Below are positions 1,601 to 6,696 of a DNA stretch of 14,560 nucleotides, piece after piece. Source of the DNA: a virus (Duplodnaviria; Heunggongvirae; Uroviricota; Caudoviricetes); IMG/VR virus record IMGVR_UViG_2609459844_000001, positions 1 to 14,560 of that record. One strand, 5' to 3'. How positions within the stretch are numbered: position 1 is the first letter of the stretch; the number at the start of each line of letters is the position of its first letter. Made by a program: the position numbers and the translations under genes. The notes beneath the pieces are model-generated. The model worked only from the letters and a program-made list of their open reading frames with translations, ran no database searches and was not told where the DNA came from.

Positions 1601-1816
1601 ATGTACCAGATGGAAAAAATCACAACAGGTGTGTCATACACCACGTCAGCGGTGGGAACGGGCTACTGGTTCCTGCAGTTGCTGGACAGGGTTTCCCCGT
1701 CTCAGTGGGCGGCAATAGGCGTGCTGGGGAGTCTGCTGTTTGGGCTGCTGACATATCTGACTAACCTGTATTTCAAAATCAGAGAGGACCGTCGTAAGGC
1801 TGCACGGGGAGAGTAA
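1601..1816 (+). CDS. S: Class II holin (phage 21 S21-type pinholin), 71 aa, with dual-start motif
   Basis: Translation [71 protein letters not shown] closely resembles the S21 pinholin as I recall it (two TM segments, charged C-terminus). Two Met codons at 1601 and 1610 (M-Y-Q-M) give the antiholin/holin dual start; GGGAGACGGGG lies just upstream. The track ORF starts further up at 1523, but that N-terminal extension has no holin-like sequence. Confidence 0.85.
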
Positions 1817-1820
1817 TTCA

Positions 1821-2627
1821 ATGACTCAAAACTATGAACTGATTGTGAAAGGGATCCGCAATTTTGAGAATAAAGTTACGGTAACTTTAGCGTTACGGGA
1901 CAAAAAACGCTTTGACGGTGAAATTTTTGACCTGGACATCTCGCTGGACCGTGTTGAAGGTGCCGCGCTGGAGTTTTATGAGGCAGCAGCCAGAAGGAGC
2001 ATCAGACAGGTCTTCCTGGATGTTGCTGCCGGGTTATGTGAAGGGGATGAGCTGTCGCCGGAAAAGCGCCCCATAATTTTAGAGGCGCAGGATGTGTTGA
2101 TAACCTACAAAGGAAAGCTACCGGGAAGAATTACTGGTTCTCTGAAGATGCCGCCGTCAACACTGCGGTCAGAAAAAGAGGCGTCTTGTCTGCAGTCTGA
2201 GTACTCCATTACGGTTAAAAGTGCCGGAGAGGAAGGAAATAAACGTTATTTTATTGCGTCTGCACCTGATAAAGATCAGGAATGGGAGTGTAACCGGCCA
2301 TCCTTTGTTGTATACGGAGATGGCGGGAAAATAACCATCTCAGAAAATGGGAAATTAACACCGCCATCGCACCAGCATAGTGAGGCGCTCATTGAATTTG
2401 CCATTGATTACCTGAAGAACAATAAAAAGCAGGGGCTGATGAAGCGCATTGGTCGTTGCATGGGATATCTGCAGGTAGCAGCTGAGATTGAAATGATGGC
2501 CAGTGGTGCTGACAATGATGCAGTTGTGCTGGAGGCTCTTCTGCGTGATTTTGATAATACGCCCTTTAAGAAAGCACCTGTTGACTGGATGCAGCCGGGG
2601 ATGACTTATCTGAAAGGGCGTATATAA
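1821..2627 (+). CDS. Hypothetical protein, 268 aa, unknown function (moron inserted between holin and endolysin)
   Basis: Clean 268-codon ORF whose ATG is 4 nt after the holin stop, with a GGGGAGAG Shine-Dalgarno-like sequence inside the holin 3' end (suggests translational coupling). No TM segment or signal peptide by eye. Visibly more AT-rich than flanking phage genes. I recognise no family. Confidence 0.6.
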   Translation: MTQNYELIVKGIRNFENKVTVTLALRDKKRFDGEIFDLDISLDRVEGAALEFYEAAARRSIRQVFLDVAAGLCEGDELSPEKRPIILEAQDVLITYKGKLPGRITGSLKMPPSTLRSEKEASCLQSEYSITVKSAGEEGNKRYFIASAPDKDQEWECNRPSFVVYGDGGKITISENGKLTPPSHQHSEALIEFAIDYLKNNKKQGLMKRIGRCMGYLQVAAEIEMMASGADNDAVVLEALLRDFDNTPFKKAPVDWMQPGMTYLKGRI

Positions 2628-2636
2628 GGTGGCTCG

Positions 2637-2951
2637 TTATCTGTTGCTGGATAATCGACTGAAGATGCGTTCTTTTTGTGTTTTTGCGTAATGATTGTCC
2701 CACTCACAATCAAGGTAGCTTAATTCTTCATTCAACCAGTTATTTATATTGGTCTTAATACGCATAAGCATGGGCTGTGTTAATGCTCTGGCGATAATGC
2801 CGAGAGTCACAGGTGTGAGATGTCCATACGGCTCAGCCTGAATGGATTTTACTGCATCGTGTTCTTGTGGGAGGAGTAAGAGGCACTCTGATTTTACCCG
2901 CTCATTTATGGCTTGCAGGCATAAATCATAATTATGTTGATCGTTATGCAT
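2637..2951 (-). CDS. Hypothetical protein, 104 aa, convergent partner of the 268-aa ORF
   Basis: Minus-strand ORF of 104 codons whose stop is about 10 nt from the stop of the 268-aa gene. AT-rich; no recognisable motif. Filling the gap between two same-strand lysis genes on the opposite strand is typical of an acquired moron. Confidence 0.45.
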   Translation of the reverse strand: MHNDQHNYDLCLQAINERVKSECLLLLPQEHDAVKSIQAEPYGHLTPVTLGIIARALTQPMLMRIKTNINNWLNEELSYLDCEWDNHYAKTQKERIFSRLSSNR

Positions 2952-3079
2952 GGTTAATCCTCTACTGAAATTGTCAGATATATTTCAGCCATCAGGAAAA
3001 ACGCCAGTGTCCTACCGCTGGCGGGCTGAAGATTTAACATATCCAGGGATTCGGAACCGATAAATCCTGATAAATATCC

Positions 3080-3613
3080 ATGAACACCAAAATCAAATAT
3101 GGCCTGTCGGCTGCCGTTCTGGCGTTGATTGCCATCGGTGCGCCTGCGCCTGATATTCTCGACCAGTTTCTGGATGAAAAAGAAGGTAACCACACAACGG
3201 CATACCGTGATGGTGCGGGTATCTGGACCATCTGCCGCGGTGCCACAATGGTGGATGGTAAACCTGTTATTCCGGGCATGAAACTGTCGAAGGAAAAATG
3301 CGACCAGGTTAATGCCATTGAACGGGATAAGGCGCTGGCATGGGTGGAGCGCAATATTAAAGTTCCACTGACCGAACCACAGAAAGCGGGTATAGCGTCA
3401 TTCTGTCCCTATAACATTGGCCCCGGTAAGTGTTTCCCGTCGACGTTTTATAAGCGGCTGAATGCTGGTGACCGCAGGGGAGCGTGTGAGGCGATTCGCT
3501 GGTGGATTAAGGACGGTGGCAGAGACTGCCGTATTCGTTCAAACAACTGCTACGGTCAGGTATCCCGTCGTGACCAGGAGAGCGCGCTGGCGTGCTGGGG
3601 TATCGACAGATAA
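3080..3613 (+). CDS. R: SAR endolysin (phage 21 R21-type lysozyme, T4-lysozyme-like fold)
   Basis: 177 aa. N-terminal Gly/Ala-rich weakly hydrophobic stretch (GLSAAVLALIAIGAPAP) consistent with a signal-anchor-release domain, then an E-x8-D-x5-T catalytic triad (E..GNHTTAYRD..GAGIWT) as in T4 lysozyme-type muramidases. Confidence 0.9.
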   Translation: MNTKIKYGLSAAVLALIAIGAPAPDILDQFLDEKEGNHTTAYRDGAGIWTICRGATMVDGKPVIPGMKLSKEKCDQVNAIERDKALAWVERNIKVPLTEPQKAGIASFCPYNIGPGKCFPSTFYKRLNAGDRRGACEAIRWWIKDGGRDCRIRSNNCYGQVSRRDQESALACWGIDR

Positions 3614-3701
3614 GCAGAATATTTTGCTGAAAAATAAGGCATGGCCACGCGGGCGGATAACACGAAATCCTGCGAACTGGCGAAACGTAAGTGAATAAAA
3701 G

Positions 3702-3745
3702 TAAAAACCCCGTTTGTTGGCAGCAAGCGGGGTTTTGTTTTTATG
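3702..3745 (+). terminator. Putative rho-independent terminator just after the endolysin gene
   Basis: AAAACCCCG ... CGGGGTTTT inverted repeat followed by TTTTGTTTTT on the + strand. The loop is long (about 15 nt), so stability is uncertain. Confidence 0.4.
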
Positions 3746-3807
3746 GCAGTAAGCTATGGGAGGCTGCCTTGATTGATTTTAGCAAACTGATTAGGGAGTT
3801 GCGACTC

Positions 3808-3903
3808 ATGATTAGTCAATTACCAAACTGGAAATTTTTGCTGGTCTGGAGCATCCCTTTTTTATGGGTAGTATCCCAGTTAATTGTGGCAATTAAGGGG
3901 TAG
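3808..3903 (+). CDS. Small hydrophobic peptide, 31 aa (speculative)
   Basis: ATG at 3808 preceded by AGGGAG at 9-nt spacing; translation MISQLPNWKFLLVWSIPFLWVVSQLIVAIKG is a single predicted TM helix. Too short to be confident. Confidence 0.2.
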   Translation: MISQLPNWKFLLVWSIPFLWVVSQLIVAIKG

Positions 3904-3905
3904 CT

Positions 3906-4037
3906 ATGTCAGACAAACTCATAACGCCGGCAAAGGTCCTGTGTGTGATTGTCGGTATTTCATTTTCACTAATGCTGGTTGCTCTTTTTCTGTCCCTCGC
4001 CTGGGTGATGTTGTCTTCGTCGGGGCTGCTGGGGTGA
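3906..4037 (+). CDS. Small membrane peptide, 43 aa (speculative); TM segment resembles the Rz N-terminal TM
   Basis: ATG at 3906 preceded by AAGGGG; translation MSDKLITPAKVLCVIVGISFSLMLVALFLSLAWVMLSSSGLLG. The KVLCVIVGISFSLMLVA stretch resembles [16 protein letters not shown] at the Rz N-terminus (4256). Confidence 0.3.
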   Translation: MSDKLITPAKVLCVIVGISFSLMLVALFLSLAWVMLSSSGLLG

Positions 4038-4156
4038 CAGTGACTGATGACATCAGCAGAGCGCTGGCTTTTGCTATTAAGTGGGTGGCTGTTGGTATTG
4101 CTGTGTCTCCGATGCTATATGGGCTGGCAAAACTGGTCATTGCGCTGAAATCGTGA
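4034..4156 (+). CDS. Small hydrophobic peptide, about 40 aa from a GTG start (speculative); paralogous to the next peptide
   Basis: Translation VTVTDDISRALAFAIKWVAVGIAVSPMLYGLAKLVIALKS. Shares the motif R-A-[LM]-A-F-A-I-[KR]-x-V-A-[VI] with the peptide at 4168-4254. Start codon uncertain. Confidence 0.25.
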   Translation: MTVTDDISRALAFAIKWVAVGIAVSPMLYGLAKLVIALKS

Positions 4157-4255: not shown

Positions 4256-4723
4256 ATGAACCGTGTTCTGTGTGTGGTGATTATTGTCATGCTGGTGGCC
4301 TGTGGTGCGCTTAGTCTGGGGCTGAATCATTACCGTGATAACGCCATTACCTACAAAGCCCAGCGCGACAAAAATGTCAGAGAACTGAAGCTGGCGAACG
4401 CGGCAATTACTGACATGCAGATGCGTCAGCGTGATGTTGCTGCGCTCGATGCAAAATACTCGAGGGAATTAGCCGATGCGAGAGCTGAAAATGAAACTCT
4501 TCGCGCTGACGTTGCCGCTGGTCGTAAGCGCCTGCGTATCAACGCCACCTGTCCAGGTCCCGTGCGTGAAGCCACCGGCACCGCCCGCGTGGATAATGCA
4601 ACCGGCCCCCGACTGGCAGACACCGCTGAACGGGATTATTTCACCCTCAGAGAGCGGCTGATGACGATGCACAAGCAACTGGAAGGGGCGCAGGAATATA
4701 TCCGTACTCAGTGCCTGAAATAA
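4256..4723 (+). CDS. Rz: Spanin inner-membrane subunit (i-spanin)
   Basis: 155 aa from the ATG at 4256: N-terminal TM ([21 protein letters not shown]), then a charged coiled-coil-like periplasmic region ([26 protein letters not shown]). Embedded Rz1 in the +1 frame. Track ORF 4172-4723 is the same frame with a non-native N-terminal extension. Confidence 0.85.
4491..4661 (+). CDS. Rz1: Spanin outer-membrane lipoprotein subunit (o-spanin), embedded in Rz
   Basis: [15 protein letters not shown] lipoprotein signal with lipobox V-S-A-C, followed by a proline-rich mature region ([18 protein letters not shown]). Entirely inside Rz in a different frame, the classic Rz/Rz1 arrangement. Confidence 0.8.
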
Positions 4724-5073
4724 GTTTTGTTGATGCGCCGTATCGTCGCTGTATTCCCTCATTAACAGAGACCGCAGCCCGACAGGGAGACTCCTCTGCG
4801 CGAGTGTGCGGGGATAATCAAAAACGATACACACCGGGGTTTACCGCGTTAACGGAGCGCGGCGTTGTCCCCTCATAGTCGCCTGTCCGGTGCGATGGTG
4901 GAAGAAGCCGGATGTTTATCACTATTAATTGATGACACAGAAATGGATTCATTGAATTTCAGCACGTTTTTGTATTCGTGTTATTGAACATCTGTTTATT
5001 TTACTTTTAACATATTGATAATAAAAAGAGCTGTAAATCTTTAGATGAGTCGATTTTGTCCGGGGAAGTTCAA

Positions 5074-5214
5074 ATGGATTTTATGCTGACGGTTTCTGGT
5101 GTGGTTATCCTGTCCATTGCTTATACTGCAGATAAATATGGCTGCCATTTGTTATCACGTATTGGCGCTTATTGTTCGTTGATGCTGATTTTCTCGTCGC
5201 TTTTTTTTGAGTAA
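5074..5214 (+). CDS. Small hydrophobic peptide, 46 aa (speculative)
   Basis: ATG at 5074 preceded by GGGGAAG; translation MDFMLTVSGVVILSIAYTADKYGCHLLSRIGAYCSLMLIFSSLFFE. Lies in a strongly AT-rich spacer. Hand-translated; not in the supplied track. Confidence 0.2.
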   Translation: MDFMLTVSGVVILSIAYTADKYGCHLLSRIGAYCSLMLIFSSLFFE

Positions 5215-5346
5215 GTTATATTAATTATAACAAATAATTTTCTGTGTTATTTTTTCAGGCTATCCCGTCAGAGGGGAAGCCTGTACTGCCAGGGAGCGAA
5301 TGGAAAACTGATGTGTCCGGTAACTGCGTGTTCTGTGAACACCATG

Positions 5347-5532
5347 TTACTTAATTATGTAATTCATACCCGAACTCTCTGTTGACAGCCTTCTTCTGCA
5401 GGCTTCAATAACCCACGCTGAAAAGTTTCCTGAACCTTTCAGATCAAGAGCGATGTTAATTTGTTCAATCATCTGGTTTGGAAATCGGATGTTGCGGGTT
5501 GTTGTTCTGCGGGTTCTGTTCTTTGATGACAT
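5347..5532 (-). CDS. Small Arc/MetJ-like (ribbon-helix-helix) protein, probably DUF3950 family (YlcI/YnfO-like), 61 aa
   Basis: Translation ...TRNIRFPNQMIEQINIALDLKGSGNFSAWVIEACRRRL... has a basic N-terminus, a short beta-strand (NIRFP) and two helices, which is an RHH-like pattern. A similar small gene sits next to cos/terminase on the opposite strand in E. coli lambdoid prophages (recollection, not searched). Confidence 0.5.
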   Translation of the reverse strand: MSSKNRTRRTTTRNIRFPNQMIEQINIALDLKGSGNFSAWVIEACRRRLSTESSGMNYIIK

Positions 5533-5699
5533 AATGTTTCCCCATATTCAGTGTTGCTGATTTGTATTATCAGAAGTTGCTTTTACGTTAATTTGACGCA
5601 GATCAATTAATACGATACCTGCGTCATAATTGATTATTTCTCGTGGTTTGATGGCGTACACACATGTTGTGATAAACCTTATATAGATGATAATAATTA

Positions 5700-5920
5700 T
5701 CATTTCGTGGGTCCTTTCCGGCGATCCGACCGGTTACGGGGCGGCGACCTCGCGGGTTTTCGCTATTTATGAAAATTTTCCGGTTTAAGGCGTTTCCGTT
5801 CTTCTTCGTCATAACTTAATGTTTTTATTTAAAATACCCTCTGAAAAGAAAGGAAACGACAGGTGCTGAAAACGGGCTTTTTGGCCTCTGTCGTTTCCTT
5901 TCTCTGTTTTTGTCCGTGGA
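5700..5920. other. cos: Lambda-type cohesive end site (cosQ-cosN-cosB); 12-nt cohesive end GGGCGGCGACCT at 5738-5749
   Basis: 5738-5749 reads GGGCGGCGACCT, followed by CGCGGGTTTTCGCTATTTATGAAAATTTTCCGG..., which matches the left end of the lambda genome as I remember it. 5711-5737 (GTCCTTTCCGGCGATCCGAC.GGTTACG) matches the lambda right end (cosQ side). cosB R-element repeats include a 15-bp perfect inverted repeat, GAAAGGAAACGACAG at about 5850-5864 and CTGTCGTTTCCTTTC at about 5890-5904. Confidence 0.85.
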
Positions 5921-5927
5921 ATGAACA

Positions 5928-5990
5928 ATGGAAGTCAACAAAAAGCAGCTGGCTGACATTTTCGGCGCGAGTATGGGCGCTGGCCAATGA
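5928..5990 (+). pseudogene. nu1: Terminase small subunit nu1, 5' stub only (16 native codons, then a deletion junction and a stop)
   Basis: ATGGAAGTCAACAAAAAGCAGCTGGCTGACATTTTCGG.GCGAGTAT matches the lambda nu1 start (MEVNKKQLADIFGAS); similarity ends at about 5975 and the frame stops at 5988-5990. Confidence 0.7.
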
Positions 5991-5991
5991 C

Positions 5992-6696
5992 ATGAACTGC
6001 AGCGCAGGTCAGCTGCTTGCCAGTGCCGCCTCCCGGCGTCTGGTCACGCAGACCGCCCGGACAGGCTCCATCGGCGTCAAGGGCAAATACACCATGACCG
6101 GTGAAGCCTTCGATCCGGTTGAGGTGGATATGGGCCGCAGTGCGGCGAACAACATCACGCAGTCCGGCGGCACGGAGTGGAGCAAGCGTGACAAGTCCAC
6201 GTATGACCCGACCGACGATATCGAAGCCTACGCGCTGAACGCCAGCGGCGTGGTGAATATCATTGTGTTTGACCCGAAAGGCTGGGCGCTGTTCCGTTCC
6301 TTCAAAGCCGTCAGGGAGAAGCTGGATACCCGTCGCGGCTCTCATTCCGAACTGGAGACAGCGGTGAAAGACCTGGGCAAAGCGGTGTCTTATAAGGGAA
6401 TGTATGGCGATGTGGCCATCGTCGTGTATTCCGGACAGTACGTGGAAAACGGCGTCAAAAAGAACTTCCTGCCGGACAACACGATGGTGCTGGGTAACAC
6501 TCATGCACGCGGTCTGCGCACCTATGGCTGCATTCAGGATGCGGATGCACAGCGCGAAGGCATTAACGCCTCTGCCCGTTACCCGAAAAACTGGGTGACC
6601 ACCGGCGATCCGGCGCGTGAGTTCACCATGATTCAGTCAGCACCGCTGATGCTGCTGGCTGACCCTGATGAGTTCGTTTCCGTACAACTGGCGTAA
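5992..6696 (+). pseudogene. E: Major capsid protein E, N-terminally truncated (lambda-like sequence from about 6079 to the native stop)
   Basis: From KGKYTMTGEAFDPVEVDMGRS to the C-terminal ...LMLLADPDEFVSVQLA the translation is near-identical to the lambda gpE C-terminal region as I recall it. The sequence upstream of about 6079 is not E-like, and the stub of nu1 lies just upstream in another frame. Track ORF 5863-6696 is the same frame from a GTG. Confidence 0.8.

Follow-up and report, generated by a model that had tools for sequence, protein, structure and literature searches.

A YdfR-family gene and a small convergent gene form a conserved pair in prophages of Escherichia coli and Salmonella

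Two genes between the holin and the endolysin

The window analyzed here is a 14,560-nucleotide stretch of DNA from an E. coli prophage. Two open reading frames, ORF268 and ORF104, were confirmed between its holin and endolysin genes. The upstream flank is the gene for a 71-aa S21-type (class II) pinholin (1601..1816, + strand; Pfam PF04971, E 9e-33) with the dual-start MYQMEK motif, and in a 100%-identical record PGAP labels this gene "class II holin". The downstream flank encodes the 177-aa SAR endolysin R (3080..3613, + strand; PF00959, E 2.8e-25), the N-terminus of which reads as Ala/Gly-rich and hydrophobic. ORF268 (1821-2627, + strand) lies on the late-operon strand and encodes a 268-aa long-form YdfR-family protein. 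Its ATG at 1821 falls 4 nt after the holin stop (TAA, 1814-1816), and a GGAG-type Shine-Dalgarno sequence is located within the holin 3′ end. ORF104 (2637-2951, − strand) encodes a small soluble protein of 104 aa and converges on ORF268, with 9 nt between the two stop codons. This layout, including the placement of the large gene in the late lysis operon, is as the initial annotation had described it. We note that the prophage in the window is defective.

Both genes had also been called more AT-rich than their neighbors, and the numbers bear this out: GC is 0.470 for ORF268 and 0.410 for ORF104, compared with 0.532 for the holin gene, 0.532 for R and 0.533 for the window, and GC3 is 0.47 and 0.42, respectively, against 0.64 and 0.56 in the flanking genes. 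The description of the 268-aa protein as soluble-looking stands as well. Both proteins are acidic to neutral and soluble as computed from sequence, and neither has a hydrophobic segment (highest 19-residue Kyte-Doolittle means, 0.87 for ORF268 and 1.16 for ORF104). These hydropathy values, with no transmembrane or SAR segment, speak against a holin, antiholin or membrane lysis regulator as the identity of either product.

No family had been recognized for either gene, and this view has to be given up. ORF268 matches the entire phrog_1085 profile (E 8.8e-147), and its N-terminal DUF1327/YdfR domain (aa 1-100; 1821..2120, + strand) matches Pfam DUF1327 (PF07041) at 140.3 bits against a cut-off of 25 (E 2.4e-41), spanning profile positions 1-88 of 93. 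The folded core of this domain comprises about aa 1-72, with three strands and one helix (E5-14, E18-27, E33-43 and H50-72 in the AF2 prediction), and dN/dS across the domain is 0.18-0.30. A predicted disordered linker follows (aa 73-154; 2037..2282, + strand; pLDDT <50 for aa 65-154), and then a conserved C-domain of ∼110 aa (aa 155-268; 2283..2624, + strand) with a three-stranded sheet and three helices. The AF2 model of the whole protein is poor (pLDDT 52.7); within the C-domain, block-mean pLDDT is ∼59-87 over residues 161-240 and goes down to 48 at 241-250. In an alignment with the Salmonella and metagenome relatives, the invariant residues of the C-domain are H186, G211, R212, L217, Q218, A220, A221, P248, K250, W256, P259, G260, Y263 and L264, and its dN/dS is 0.19-0.40. 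Relative to the 333-aa protein P0030, the ORF268 linker lacks a coiled-coil module (DDxESRIEKLE...) that is present in most relatives and that was lost, apparently, through an in-frame deletion between two SEK(D/E) repeats. Some full-length relatives have 287-333 aa, and the 268-aa form is seen with two different N-domain alleles. We take the long form, as in ORF268, to be close to the ancestral YdfR architecture.

Searches of Pfam, NCBIfam and PADLOC, the last also with the C-terminal half separately, returned nothing for ORF268 beyond DUF1327. The C-domain had no explanatory match in PADLOC, Pfam, PDB or fold searches, and profile searches against PDB sequences gave no match. Weak Pfam coiled-coil and leucine-zipper matches to the linker were dismissed, and a weak match of aa 7-58 to a 3128-aa protein (P0206) is uninformative, as that protein is a G2F-repeat giant.

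ORF104 matches phrog_1853 (E 8.4e-50), the profile of which is longer (159 positions) because some loci have in-frame upstream starts. AF2 predicts a five-helix bundle (pLDDT 87.8, pTM 0.81). Homologues stay 103-106 codons long down to 41% identity, and dN/dS is 0.24-0.37 in E. coli and 0.17-0.20 in the Salmonella clade; the conserved length of ORF104 and the low dN/dS of both genes argue that the two are more than chance ORFs. No explanatory match to ORF104 was found in PADLOC, Pfam, NCBIfam, PDB or fold searches. A MazG-like all-alpha NTP pyrophosphohydrolase was considered and rejected, since the candidate reached neither the model cut-off nor fold similarity; MazG Pfam matches in two ORF104 homologues (E ∼0.13) were dismissed, as was an LRR19-TM Pfam match to ORF104 itself (E 0.17).

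Distribution and pairing of the two genes

The initial annotation took S followed directly by R to be the norm in this type of cassette, and the two genes to be an unusual insertion into it. Neither claim survives comparison. A DUF1327 gene lies between S and R in K-12 Qin, in BP-4795, in loci L004-L015 and in every E. coli cassette inspected, such that a YdfR-family gene after the S21-type holin is usual. DNA resembling the 5′ third of the ORF268 gene is present in 4349 of 5426 complete E. coli genomes (∼80%), in lysis cassettes among which are those of Shiga-toxin phages. Irrespective of the N-terminus it encodes, the gene at each E. coli locus starts 3-4 nt past the holin stop. A one-genome-per-species scan returned a single Escherichia locus and added no taxonomic breadth.

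One close known relative is K-12 YdfR (b1555, Qin), which, like ORF268, starts 4 nt after an S21-type holin gene, essQ, and precedes a lysozyme gene, rrrQ. Residues 1-74 of the two proteins are 81% identical. Unlike ORF268, K-12 YdfR is only 103 aa long and has no linker, C-domain or convergent partner; judged from the long form, which is the architecture common to the Salmonella homologues, the K-12 protein is probably a truncated remnant. Short genes of this family are also found in BP-4795 (ORF47, a DUF1327 gene placed between S and R as ORF268 is), YYZ-2008 (annotated as a YdfR-family protein) and H-19B (an unannotated match). Their products are ∼112-114 aa, and unlike ORF268 they have neither the C-domain nor an adjacent ORF104.

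The pair itself is not undescribed, as had been supposed. Stx2 phage 86 (AB255436) carries it in the same place as orf5 and orf6 (BAF34037 and BAF34038), both annotated as hypothetical. The orf6 product is 100% identical to ORF104. The orf5 product has 268 aa, is 87% identical to ORF268 overall with an identical C-domain, and differs in having another N-domain allele (MKKKYELVVKG...). The depositor's note of COG0188 (topoisomerase) similarity found no support in Pfam searches. Literature searches by protein accession, by the S-R gap and by pinholin with Qin returned nothing on these genes.

Our new result is a one-way association: ORF104 is only ever found beside a C-domain gene. With hmmsearch, each ORF104 homologue with enough flanking sequence (∼60 loci, roughly ten alleles) is tail-to-tail with a C-domain gene at a distance of -4 to +33 nt, the genes being convergent in all loci, and none of these loci has ORF104 without a C-domain gene. 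The pair is shared by E. coli and Salmonella. It occurs in at least two genomic contexts that are clearly distinct, or three counting a short metagenomic contig, and persists to 27-45% identity and through extensive reshuffling of N-terminal modules. The proposal that the two genes form a real unit is thus upheld. The reverse does not apply, as C-domain DNA occurs in 787 of the 5426 complete E. coli genomes and ORF104 in 95, in all of which it is full length. The ORF104 cassette is present in some lineages and absent from others. Of 76 IMG/VR loci, 31 have no ORF104, and the L009 lineage retains a clean ORF104 deletion scar adjoining an intact 333-aa gene.

The partners of ORF104 are of several types, namely DUF1327 plus C-domain (268 and 328 aa), coiled coil plus C-domain (213-217 aa) and almost the C-domain alone (129 aa, E. 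coli A34). Many linked genes (those of 213-217 and 129 aa) therefore have no DUF1327 domain, and the division of the C-domain into two subtypes is not mirrored among the ORF104 alleles. The Salmonella homologues of ORF268 have 260-262 aa (27.6% identity over aa 6-268, E 7e-28) and converge with ORF104 homologues of 105-106 aa, which are as little as 41% identical to ORF104; they lie between Q and the holin gene, beside HicAB. A metagenomic 297-aa homologue converges with a 111-aa protein 43% identical to ORF104. In Salmonella L027 and on metagenomic contig L026, the homologue is located just upstream of the holin gene with one ORF between, and the Salmonella pair is set off from the holin by this other ORF and a terminator-like hairpin. 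In the Salmonella L029 type, it adjoins a spanin-like gene and no holin was called.

Leader and expression signals of ORF104

A Shine-Dalgarno sequence, GAGGA (2958..2962, − strand), read from the sequence 6 nt upstream of the ORF104 ATG, is conserved in the E. coli and Salmonella leaders. Further upstream, comparison of the two together with folding delimits a conserved structured leader of the ORF104 cassette (2984..3031, − strand). Its inner hairpin, at 3002-3023, has the sense-strand form CGCCAGYG-loop-CACTGGCG, is followed in E. coli by a U-run and is enclosed by TTCAGCC/GGCTGAA. The leader is kept between E. coli and Salmonella although the proteins share only ∼43% identity. In the stem, 98.9% of alignment cells pair, while the loop varies in length, and all four one-sided changes that preserve pairing are G-U wobbles, which pair only in the ORF104-sense RNA. 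Rfam holds no family that matches this leader. We considered the inverted repeat as a protein operator and rejected this, because the spacing of its arms varies (4 to 6 nt or more) and the wobble changes that preserve the stem are strand-specific. A small upstream ORF beginning at ATGGCTG is not conserved.

A scan for sigma-70 promoters yielded none for ORF104, and by hand we could see nothing stronger than weak -10-like hexamers immediately upstream of the hairpin. As no terminator lies between ORF268 and ORF104, overlap of their transcripts is unavoidable, and ORF104 should be silenced when late transcription is strong.

Candidate functions of the pair

By analogy, RNase E binding by K-12 YdfR is the best mechanistic lead for ORF268. 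Residues 1-72 of YdfR are positive in two-hybrid tests with Rne and with Rng, and purification of full-length Strep-YdfR also recovers Rne 1-598 as well as nucleic acid that resists DNase (PMC13232886). In the same study, YdfR overproduction changed few transcripts and did not slow growth, suggesting that any RNase E effect is mild or depends on the C-domain. Combined RNase E and G deficiency leads to later lysis and a lower yield of Stx2 phage (PMC8443680).

Taken with the gene identities, the domain architecture, the purifying selection on both genes and the one-way association, all of which are established above, and with the conserved ORF104 leader, this lead suggested to us, tentatively and at somewhat less than even confidence, a conserved convergent two-gene cassette on a YdfR base, in which a late protein docks on RNase E/G, its C-domain is the effector and ORF104 is a tuner. 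ORF268 belongs to the late (Q-dependent) transcription unit, and its start is placed such that translation could be coupled to that of the holin; as such, it would be a cytoplasmic protein made alongside the lysis proteins. Its N-domain may, in line with the published K-12 YdfR results, dock on RNase G and on the RNase E catalytic half, and the docked protein would then affect RNA turnover late in infection. The C-domain would be the working part and would be recognized by ORF104, which, expressed in the lysogen or ahead of late transcription, would restrain or tune the C-domain protein. Several observations sit poorly with this model. ORF104 partners without DUF1327 indicate that RNase E docking is not essential to the pair, tight linkage alone could account for part of the co-inheritance, the ORF104 alleles are not sorted by C-domain subtype, and the scan gave no sigma-70 promoter for ORF104. 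In addition, the AF2 model of ORF268 is poor, and the fold and sequence matches point to no biochemical activity for the C-domain or ORF104.

The large gene could instead serve lysis timing, with the long YdfR binding the cytoplasmic part of the S21 pinholin or of the SAR endolysin and ORF104 modulating it. The 3-4 nt spacing from the holin stop at all E. coli loci, the near-holin homologues in Salmonella and on contig L026, and the spanin-like neighbor would fit such a role, as would an indirect hint from a CPRG screen, in which the Keio ydfR mutant scored as envelope-leaky (Paradis-Bleau 2014). The kan cassette could, however, have produced this score through polarity on rrrQ, the lysozyme gene that follows. 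ORF268 has no membrane segment, the Salmonella pair stands apart from the holin, and the position after S could merely reflect recombination at the conserved S end; we consider this role unlikely. Somewhat less likely still is that the pair is a toxin-antitoxin, abortive-infection or superinfection-exclusion module, in which the C-domain protein is harmful and ORF104 is the antidote or immunity protein expressed in the lysogen. It would account for the two-gene makeup with a small partner never found alone, the low GC, the cargo positions (beside HicAB in Salmonella) and an antisense arrangement that permits lysogen-specific expression. Against it, PADLOC, which the initial annotation had named as a check, has no match for ORF268, its C-terminal half or ORF104, and NCBIfam has none either. 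A classical toxin-antitoxin relation is disfavored because the genes are convergent in all loci rather than in a co-directional operon, PADLOC is silent and the putative toxin is common without its antidote, as the genome counts, the IMG/VR loci and the L009 scar attest. Moreover, a late-operon toxin would act only in an already dying cell.

Equally doubtful is that the genes are functionally unrelated, ORF104 being independent cargo that landed once by ydfR and was kept by linkage. Stops ∼9 nt apart would rarely be separated by recombination, the large gene is kept without ORF104, and ORF104 alleles do not co-vary with the C-domain subtypes. Nevertheless, the pair persists through deep divergence, at least two contexts and reshuffled N-terminal modules, and no ORF104 was found lacking a C-domain neighbor. 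Least credible is decay, with ORF268 a broken YdfR pseudogene and ORF104 a chance ORF. Such a reading would draw on PGAP, whose label "YdfR family, missing C-terminus" covers just the first 336 nt, on the missing coiled coil and on the defective state of the prophage. It already conflicts with what selection and conservation show: ORF268 has an intact frame, its 268-aa form is found both with two N-domain alleles and in the phage 86 genome as published, and the C-domain and ORF104 have dN/dS well below 1 and are both conserved into Salmonella. In practical terms, an intact 268-codon gene is mislabeled as a pseudogene by NCBI's pipeline.

Beyond the tentative RNase E/G-docking cassette lies a larger proposal, namely that the pair is a two-component phage module not recognized before, in which a late cytoplasmic effector, optionally tethered to RNase E/G by DUF1327, is opposed by an antagonist expressed in the lysogen from the other strand. 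We regard this as improbable. If true, the antagonist would silence leaky late expression or neutralize the effector of a superinfecting relative, the latter a new form of prophage-prophage competition. The conserved core of the YdfR family is the C-terminal domain with its dedicated small partner, and the two proteins and one RNA leader provide a concrete system for probing the role of YdfR proteins. With it one can ask directly if lambdoid phages tune RNase E/G activity, or the timing of lysis, in the late phase of infection; the answer could have consequences for the yield of Stx phage and toxin.

Other proteins act through the catalytic half of RNase E, among them the host adaptor RapZ and the phage T4 activator Srd. 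The mode may be similar, with a small protein docking on the Rne N-terminal half, but neither has sequence or fold similarity to ORF268, and the timing differs, Srd being an early gene and ORF268 a late one. Temperate phages also use opposed transcription for control, as in the convergent or antisense pairs lambda oop/cII and P22 sar/ant. In these, as here, transcription units face each other and overlap, and one should depress the other; unlike them, the antisense unit here encodes a conserved protein under purifying selection and not only an RNA.

Identity of the two genes

The lysis cassette is of the phage 21 type. The pinholin gene S (1601-1816, (+); PF04971, E 9e-33) is followed on the same strand by ORF268 (268 codons, 1821-2627), whose ATG lies 4 nt past the holin stop codon and whose GGAG-type ribosome-binding site is within the holin 3′ end; ORF104 (104 codons, 2637-2951) occupies the opposite strand, ahead of the SAR endolysin gene R (3080-3613, PF00959). 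GC is 0.470 in ORF268 and 0.410 in ORF104 vs 0.532 in both S and R and 0.533 in the window. These sequence facts (both ORFs, the 4-nt coupling, the Shine-Dalgarno sequence in the holin 3′ end, and the lower GC) had been described correctly in the initial annotation, which had also recognized no family for either product. However, DUF1327 (YdfR) matches ORF268 residues 1-100 (E 2.4e-41), phrog_1085 is matched by the entire protein, and ORF104 matches phrog_1853; the large gene belongs to a known, uncharacterized family. The accompanying premise that R normally comes straight after S fails for this cassette type, where a YdfR-family gene is usual: one lies between S and R in BP-4795, K-12 Qin, PhiR63_1, and all prophage contexts inspected. 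K-12 ydfR sits in the same slot, 4 nt past essQ and ahead of rrrQ, and its product is 81% identical to ORF268 over residues 1-74. The N-terminal third of ORF268 is also matched in H-19B and many Stx1a/Stx2c phage records, and 4349 of 5426 complete E. coli genomes contain DNA similar to the first 336 nt of the gene.

Alignments depict the YdfR family as a module mosaic of 103 to 333 aa, comprising a DUF1327 core that exists as two allele types; a linker; a coiled coil and a short segment (YSITVKS...APDKDQ), each of them optional; and a conserved C-terminal domain of ∼110 residues (invariant H186, G211-R212, L217-Q218, A220-A221, P248, K250, W256, P259-G260, and Y263-L264). ORF268 consists of the N-domain, linker, and C-domain; it has no coiled coil, and comparison with the 333-aa form suggests an in-frame deletion between two SEK(D/E) repeats. 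Because relatives of 260-314 aa from Salmonella and metagenomes have the N-domain, coiled coil, and C-domain layout in common (27-39% identity), the long form probably came first, with K-12 YdfR derived from it by truncation. Family members are very few, with only 79 representatives at E ≤ 0.001 among 1.84 billion proteins and one locus among one-genome-per-species contigs, and its distribution is narrow (Escherichia and Salmonella).

In both NZ_OZ547136 (L001 12422-13228) and E. coli O104:H4 C227-11 (L079 7422-8237), the PGAP annotation of this ORF stops after its first 336 nt, is labeled "YdfR family protein, pseudo, missing C-terminus", and leaves ∼480 nt blank. The decay that it implies is contradicted by selection and conservation: dN/dS falls within 0.18-0.30 across the N-domain and 0.19-0.40 across the C-domain, the reading frame is intact, and the 268-aa form is seen with either N-domain allele and also in Stx2 phage 86. 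The pseudogene label on this intact 268-codon allele is a recurring annotation error. ORF104 is likewise a real protein-coding gene. It is present at full length each time it occurs (95 of 5426 E. coli genomes), its homologues retain 103-106 codons down to 41% identity (Salmonella enterica), and E. coli sequences give dN/dS values of 0.24-0.37, those of the Salmonella clade 0.17-0.20. AlphaFold2 confidently predicts a five-helix bundle (pLDDT 87.8, pTM 0.81).

Two further features of the cassette were noted. A strong terminator-like hairpin (1533-1561, (+); 12-bp stem, then a T-run) lies between a nanS-p-type esterase gene and the holin, inside the expected Q-antiterminated late transcript. 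Between R and Rz, 3691-4156 holds several small overlapping ORFs with hydrophobic stretches (e.g., 3906-4037, 43 aa); PGAP places three short hypothetical proteins there in an identical record, and phage 86 has an ant gene in this slot.

Association of ORF104 with the C-domain

The main new result is the pairing of ORF104 with the C-domain. In an hmmsearch of all loci inspected, a C-domain gene adjoins each ORF104 homologue that has enough flank to be judged (∼60 loci, roughly ten distinct alleles), mostly 9-11 nt away. The N-terminal part of the partner varies freely, from DUF1327 plus C-domain (268 and 328 aa) to a coiled coil joined to the C-domain with no DUF1327 (213-217 aa), and the constant partner of ORF104 is therefore the C-domain. 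The smallest partner, in E. coli A34 (NZ_CP028741), is a 129-aa ORF (L080 3100-3489) made of eight residues (MNKKYELV) and the C-domain; it starts 4 nt past the holin, is called a pseudogene by PGAP, and is convergent with an ORF104 homologue (L080 3501-3815). In this strain, genes for Panacea-domain and ParDE proteins lie beyond the lysozyme gene.

The pair also persists outside the S-R slot. In Salmonella prophages, an ORF104 homologue of 105-106 aa and an ORF268 homologue of 260-262 aa (27.6% identity over aa 6-268, E 7e-28) lie tail-to-tail (-4 to +20 nt), and the two are placed between the Q antiterminator and the holin rather than between S and R. In S. enterica (L027 5260-5894; L029 5587-6224 and 7492-8321), the pair adjoins a HicAB toxin-antitoxin module, and L029-type loci have an 881-aa SET-domain gene and a RelB/ParE pair close by. 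On a metagenomic contig, a 297-aa ORF268 homologue follows a DUF4406 gene and has a convergent neighbor encoding 111 aa at 43% identity to ORF104.

The association is one-way, with C-domain DNA in 787 E. coli genomes vs the 95 with ORF104. Among the 76 informative IMG/VR loci (four more were uninformative), ORF104 is present in 45 and absent in 31, and its presence follows large-gene architecture: ORF104 accompanies the 268/269-aa forms and most of the 213-aa forms, and is absent beside the 296/297-aa forms. Inspected genes of 287, 296, 328, and 333 aa abut R with a gap of 36-42 nt. For the 333-aa lineage (E. coli OU349846, L009 4003-4044), the spacer to R retains the last ORF104 codons, GGCTCGTTATTTGTTGC, joined directly to CGATAAATCC (cf. 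window 2628-3079), a ∼425-bp deletion scar at GATAA(T/A) microhomology.

The same gene pair had already been deposited in phage 86, as hypothetical proteins (orf6 is 100% identical to ORF104, and the ORF268 counterpart is 87% identical), so the initial description of an undescribed system does not hold for the genes themselves. We found no report of the C-domain/ORF104 association, of the long architecture as ancestral, or of the leader RNA.

A hairpin upstream of ORF104

The ORF104 cassette carries a leader element (2984-3031, (-)) in which a CGCCAGYG-loop-CACTGGCG hairpin is enclosed by TTCAGCC/GGCTGAA; the inner hairpin (3002-3023, read on (-)) lies ∼50-60 nt upstream of the ORF104 start. 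It travels with the cassette in E. coli and Salmonella, has equivalents at L027 3920-3950 and in L029 and L025, and is conserved between E. coli and Salmonella far above the coding sequence, with 98.9% of cells pairing and a variable loop length. Four changes on one side of the stem preserve pairing, and all are G-U wobbles possible only in ORF104-sense RNA (chance ∼1 in 16, a rough estimate assuming transitions equal on either strand), which argues against a protein operator or a late-transcript feature and for an RNA element carried by the ORF104 transcript. Since a U-run follows the hairpin in E. coli and none does in Salmonella, a leader or stabilizing role is at least as likely as a terminator. 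The hairpin matches no Rfam family, and no clear sigma-70 promoter for ORF104 was found.

Possible function and prophage context

Two published experimental leads concern K-12 YdfR. In the first, residues 1-72 score positive against RNase E and RNase G in two-hybrid assays, Rne 1-598 and DNase-resistant nucleic acid co-purify with Strep-YdfR, and overproduction of YdfR changes few transcripts and does not slow growth (PMC13232886). In the second, the Keio ydfR mutant was scored leaky in a CPRG envelope screen (PMC3879167, supplement), for which polarity on the lysozyme gene downstream is a possible cause. Separately, lysis is delayed and Stx2 phage yield falls when RNase E and RNase G are deficient together (PMC8443680).

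Beyond the gene identity, architecture, selection, and pairing observed here, we propose that ORF268 would be a late, cytoplasmic YdfR-family protein whose DUF1327 domain probably docks on RNase E/G, by analogy with K-12 YdfR via the 81% identity, and whose C-domain may hold the activity that matters. Gene order and the one-way association suggest that ORF104 would be a dedicated accessory of the C-domain, made from the opposite strand while late transcription is off. The weak points of this proposal are the ORF104 partners without DUF1327 and the mild overexpression phenotype of K-12 YdfR.

A role in lysis timing would fit the invariable start directly after S, and the loci from Salmonella and metagenomes in which lysis genes lie nearby, but is weakened by the lack of a membrane segment. 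Two genes of low GC and cargo-like appearance also recall a toxin-antidote or exclusion module; that reading is weakened by the convergent layout, the lack of matches to defense models, and the frequent loss of ORF104, the supposed antidote. Linkage by itself would account for co-inheritance but fails to explain how the pair persists through different contexts and heavy module shuffling. The pair is a useful, testable lead to the role of YdfR proteins, in clinically relevant phages.

The prophage itself is defective. It lacks the terminase, portal, protease, and decoration genes that NZ_OZ547136, an otherwise 100% identical record, carries; the defective-prophage junction occurs in no complete E. 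coli genome at ≥80% coverage. Rz/Rz1 end at 4723 and a low-GC stretch follows; of a lambda gpE-like major capsid protein, just the C-terminal part (∼230 aa) remains, encoded at 5863-6696. AT content in the window peaks at 4800-5850 (GC 0.32-0.44), where a ynfO/YlcI-like ORF lies at 5347-5532 (-).
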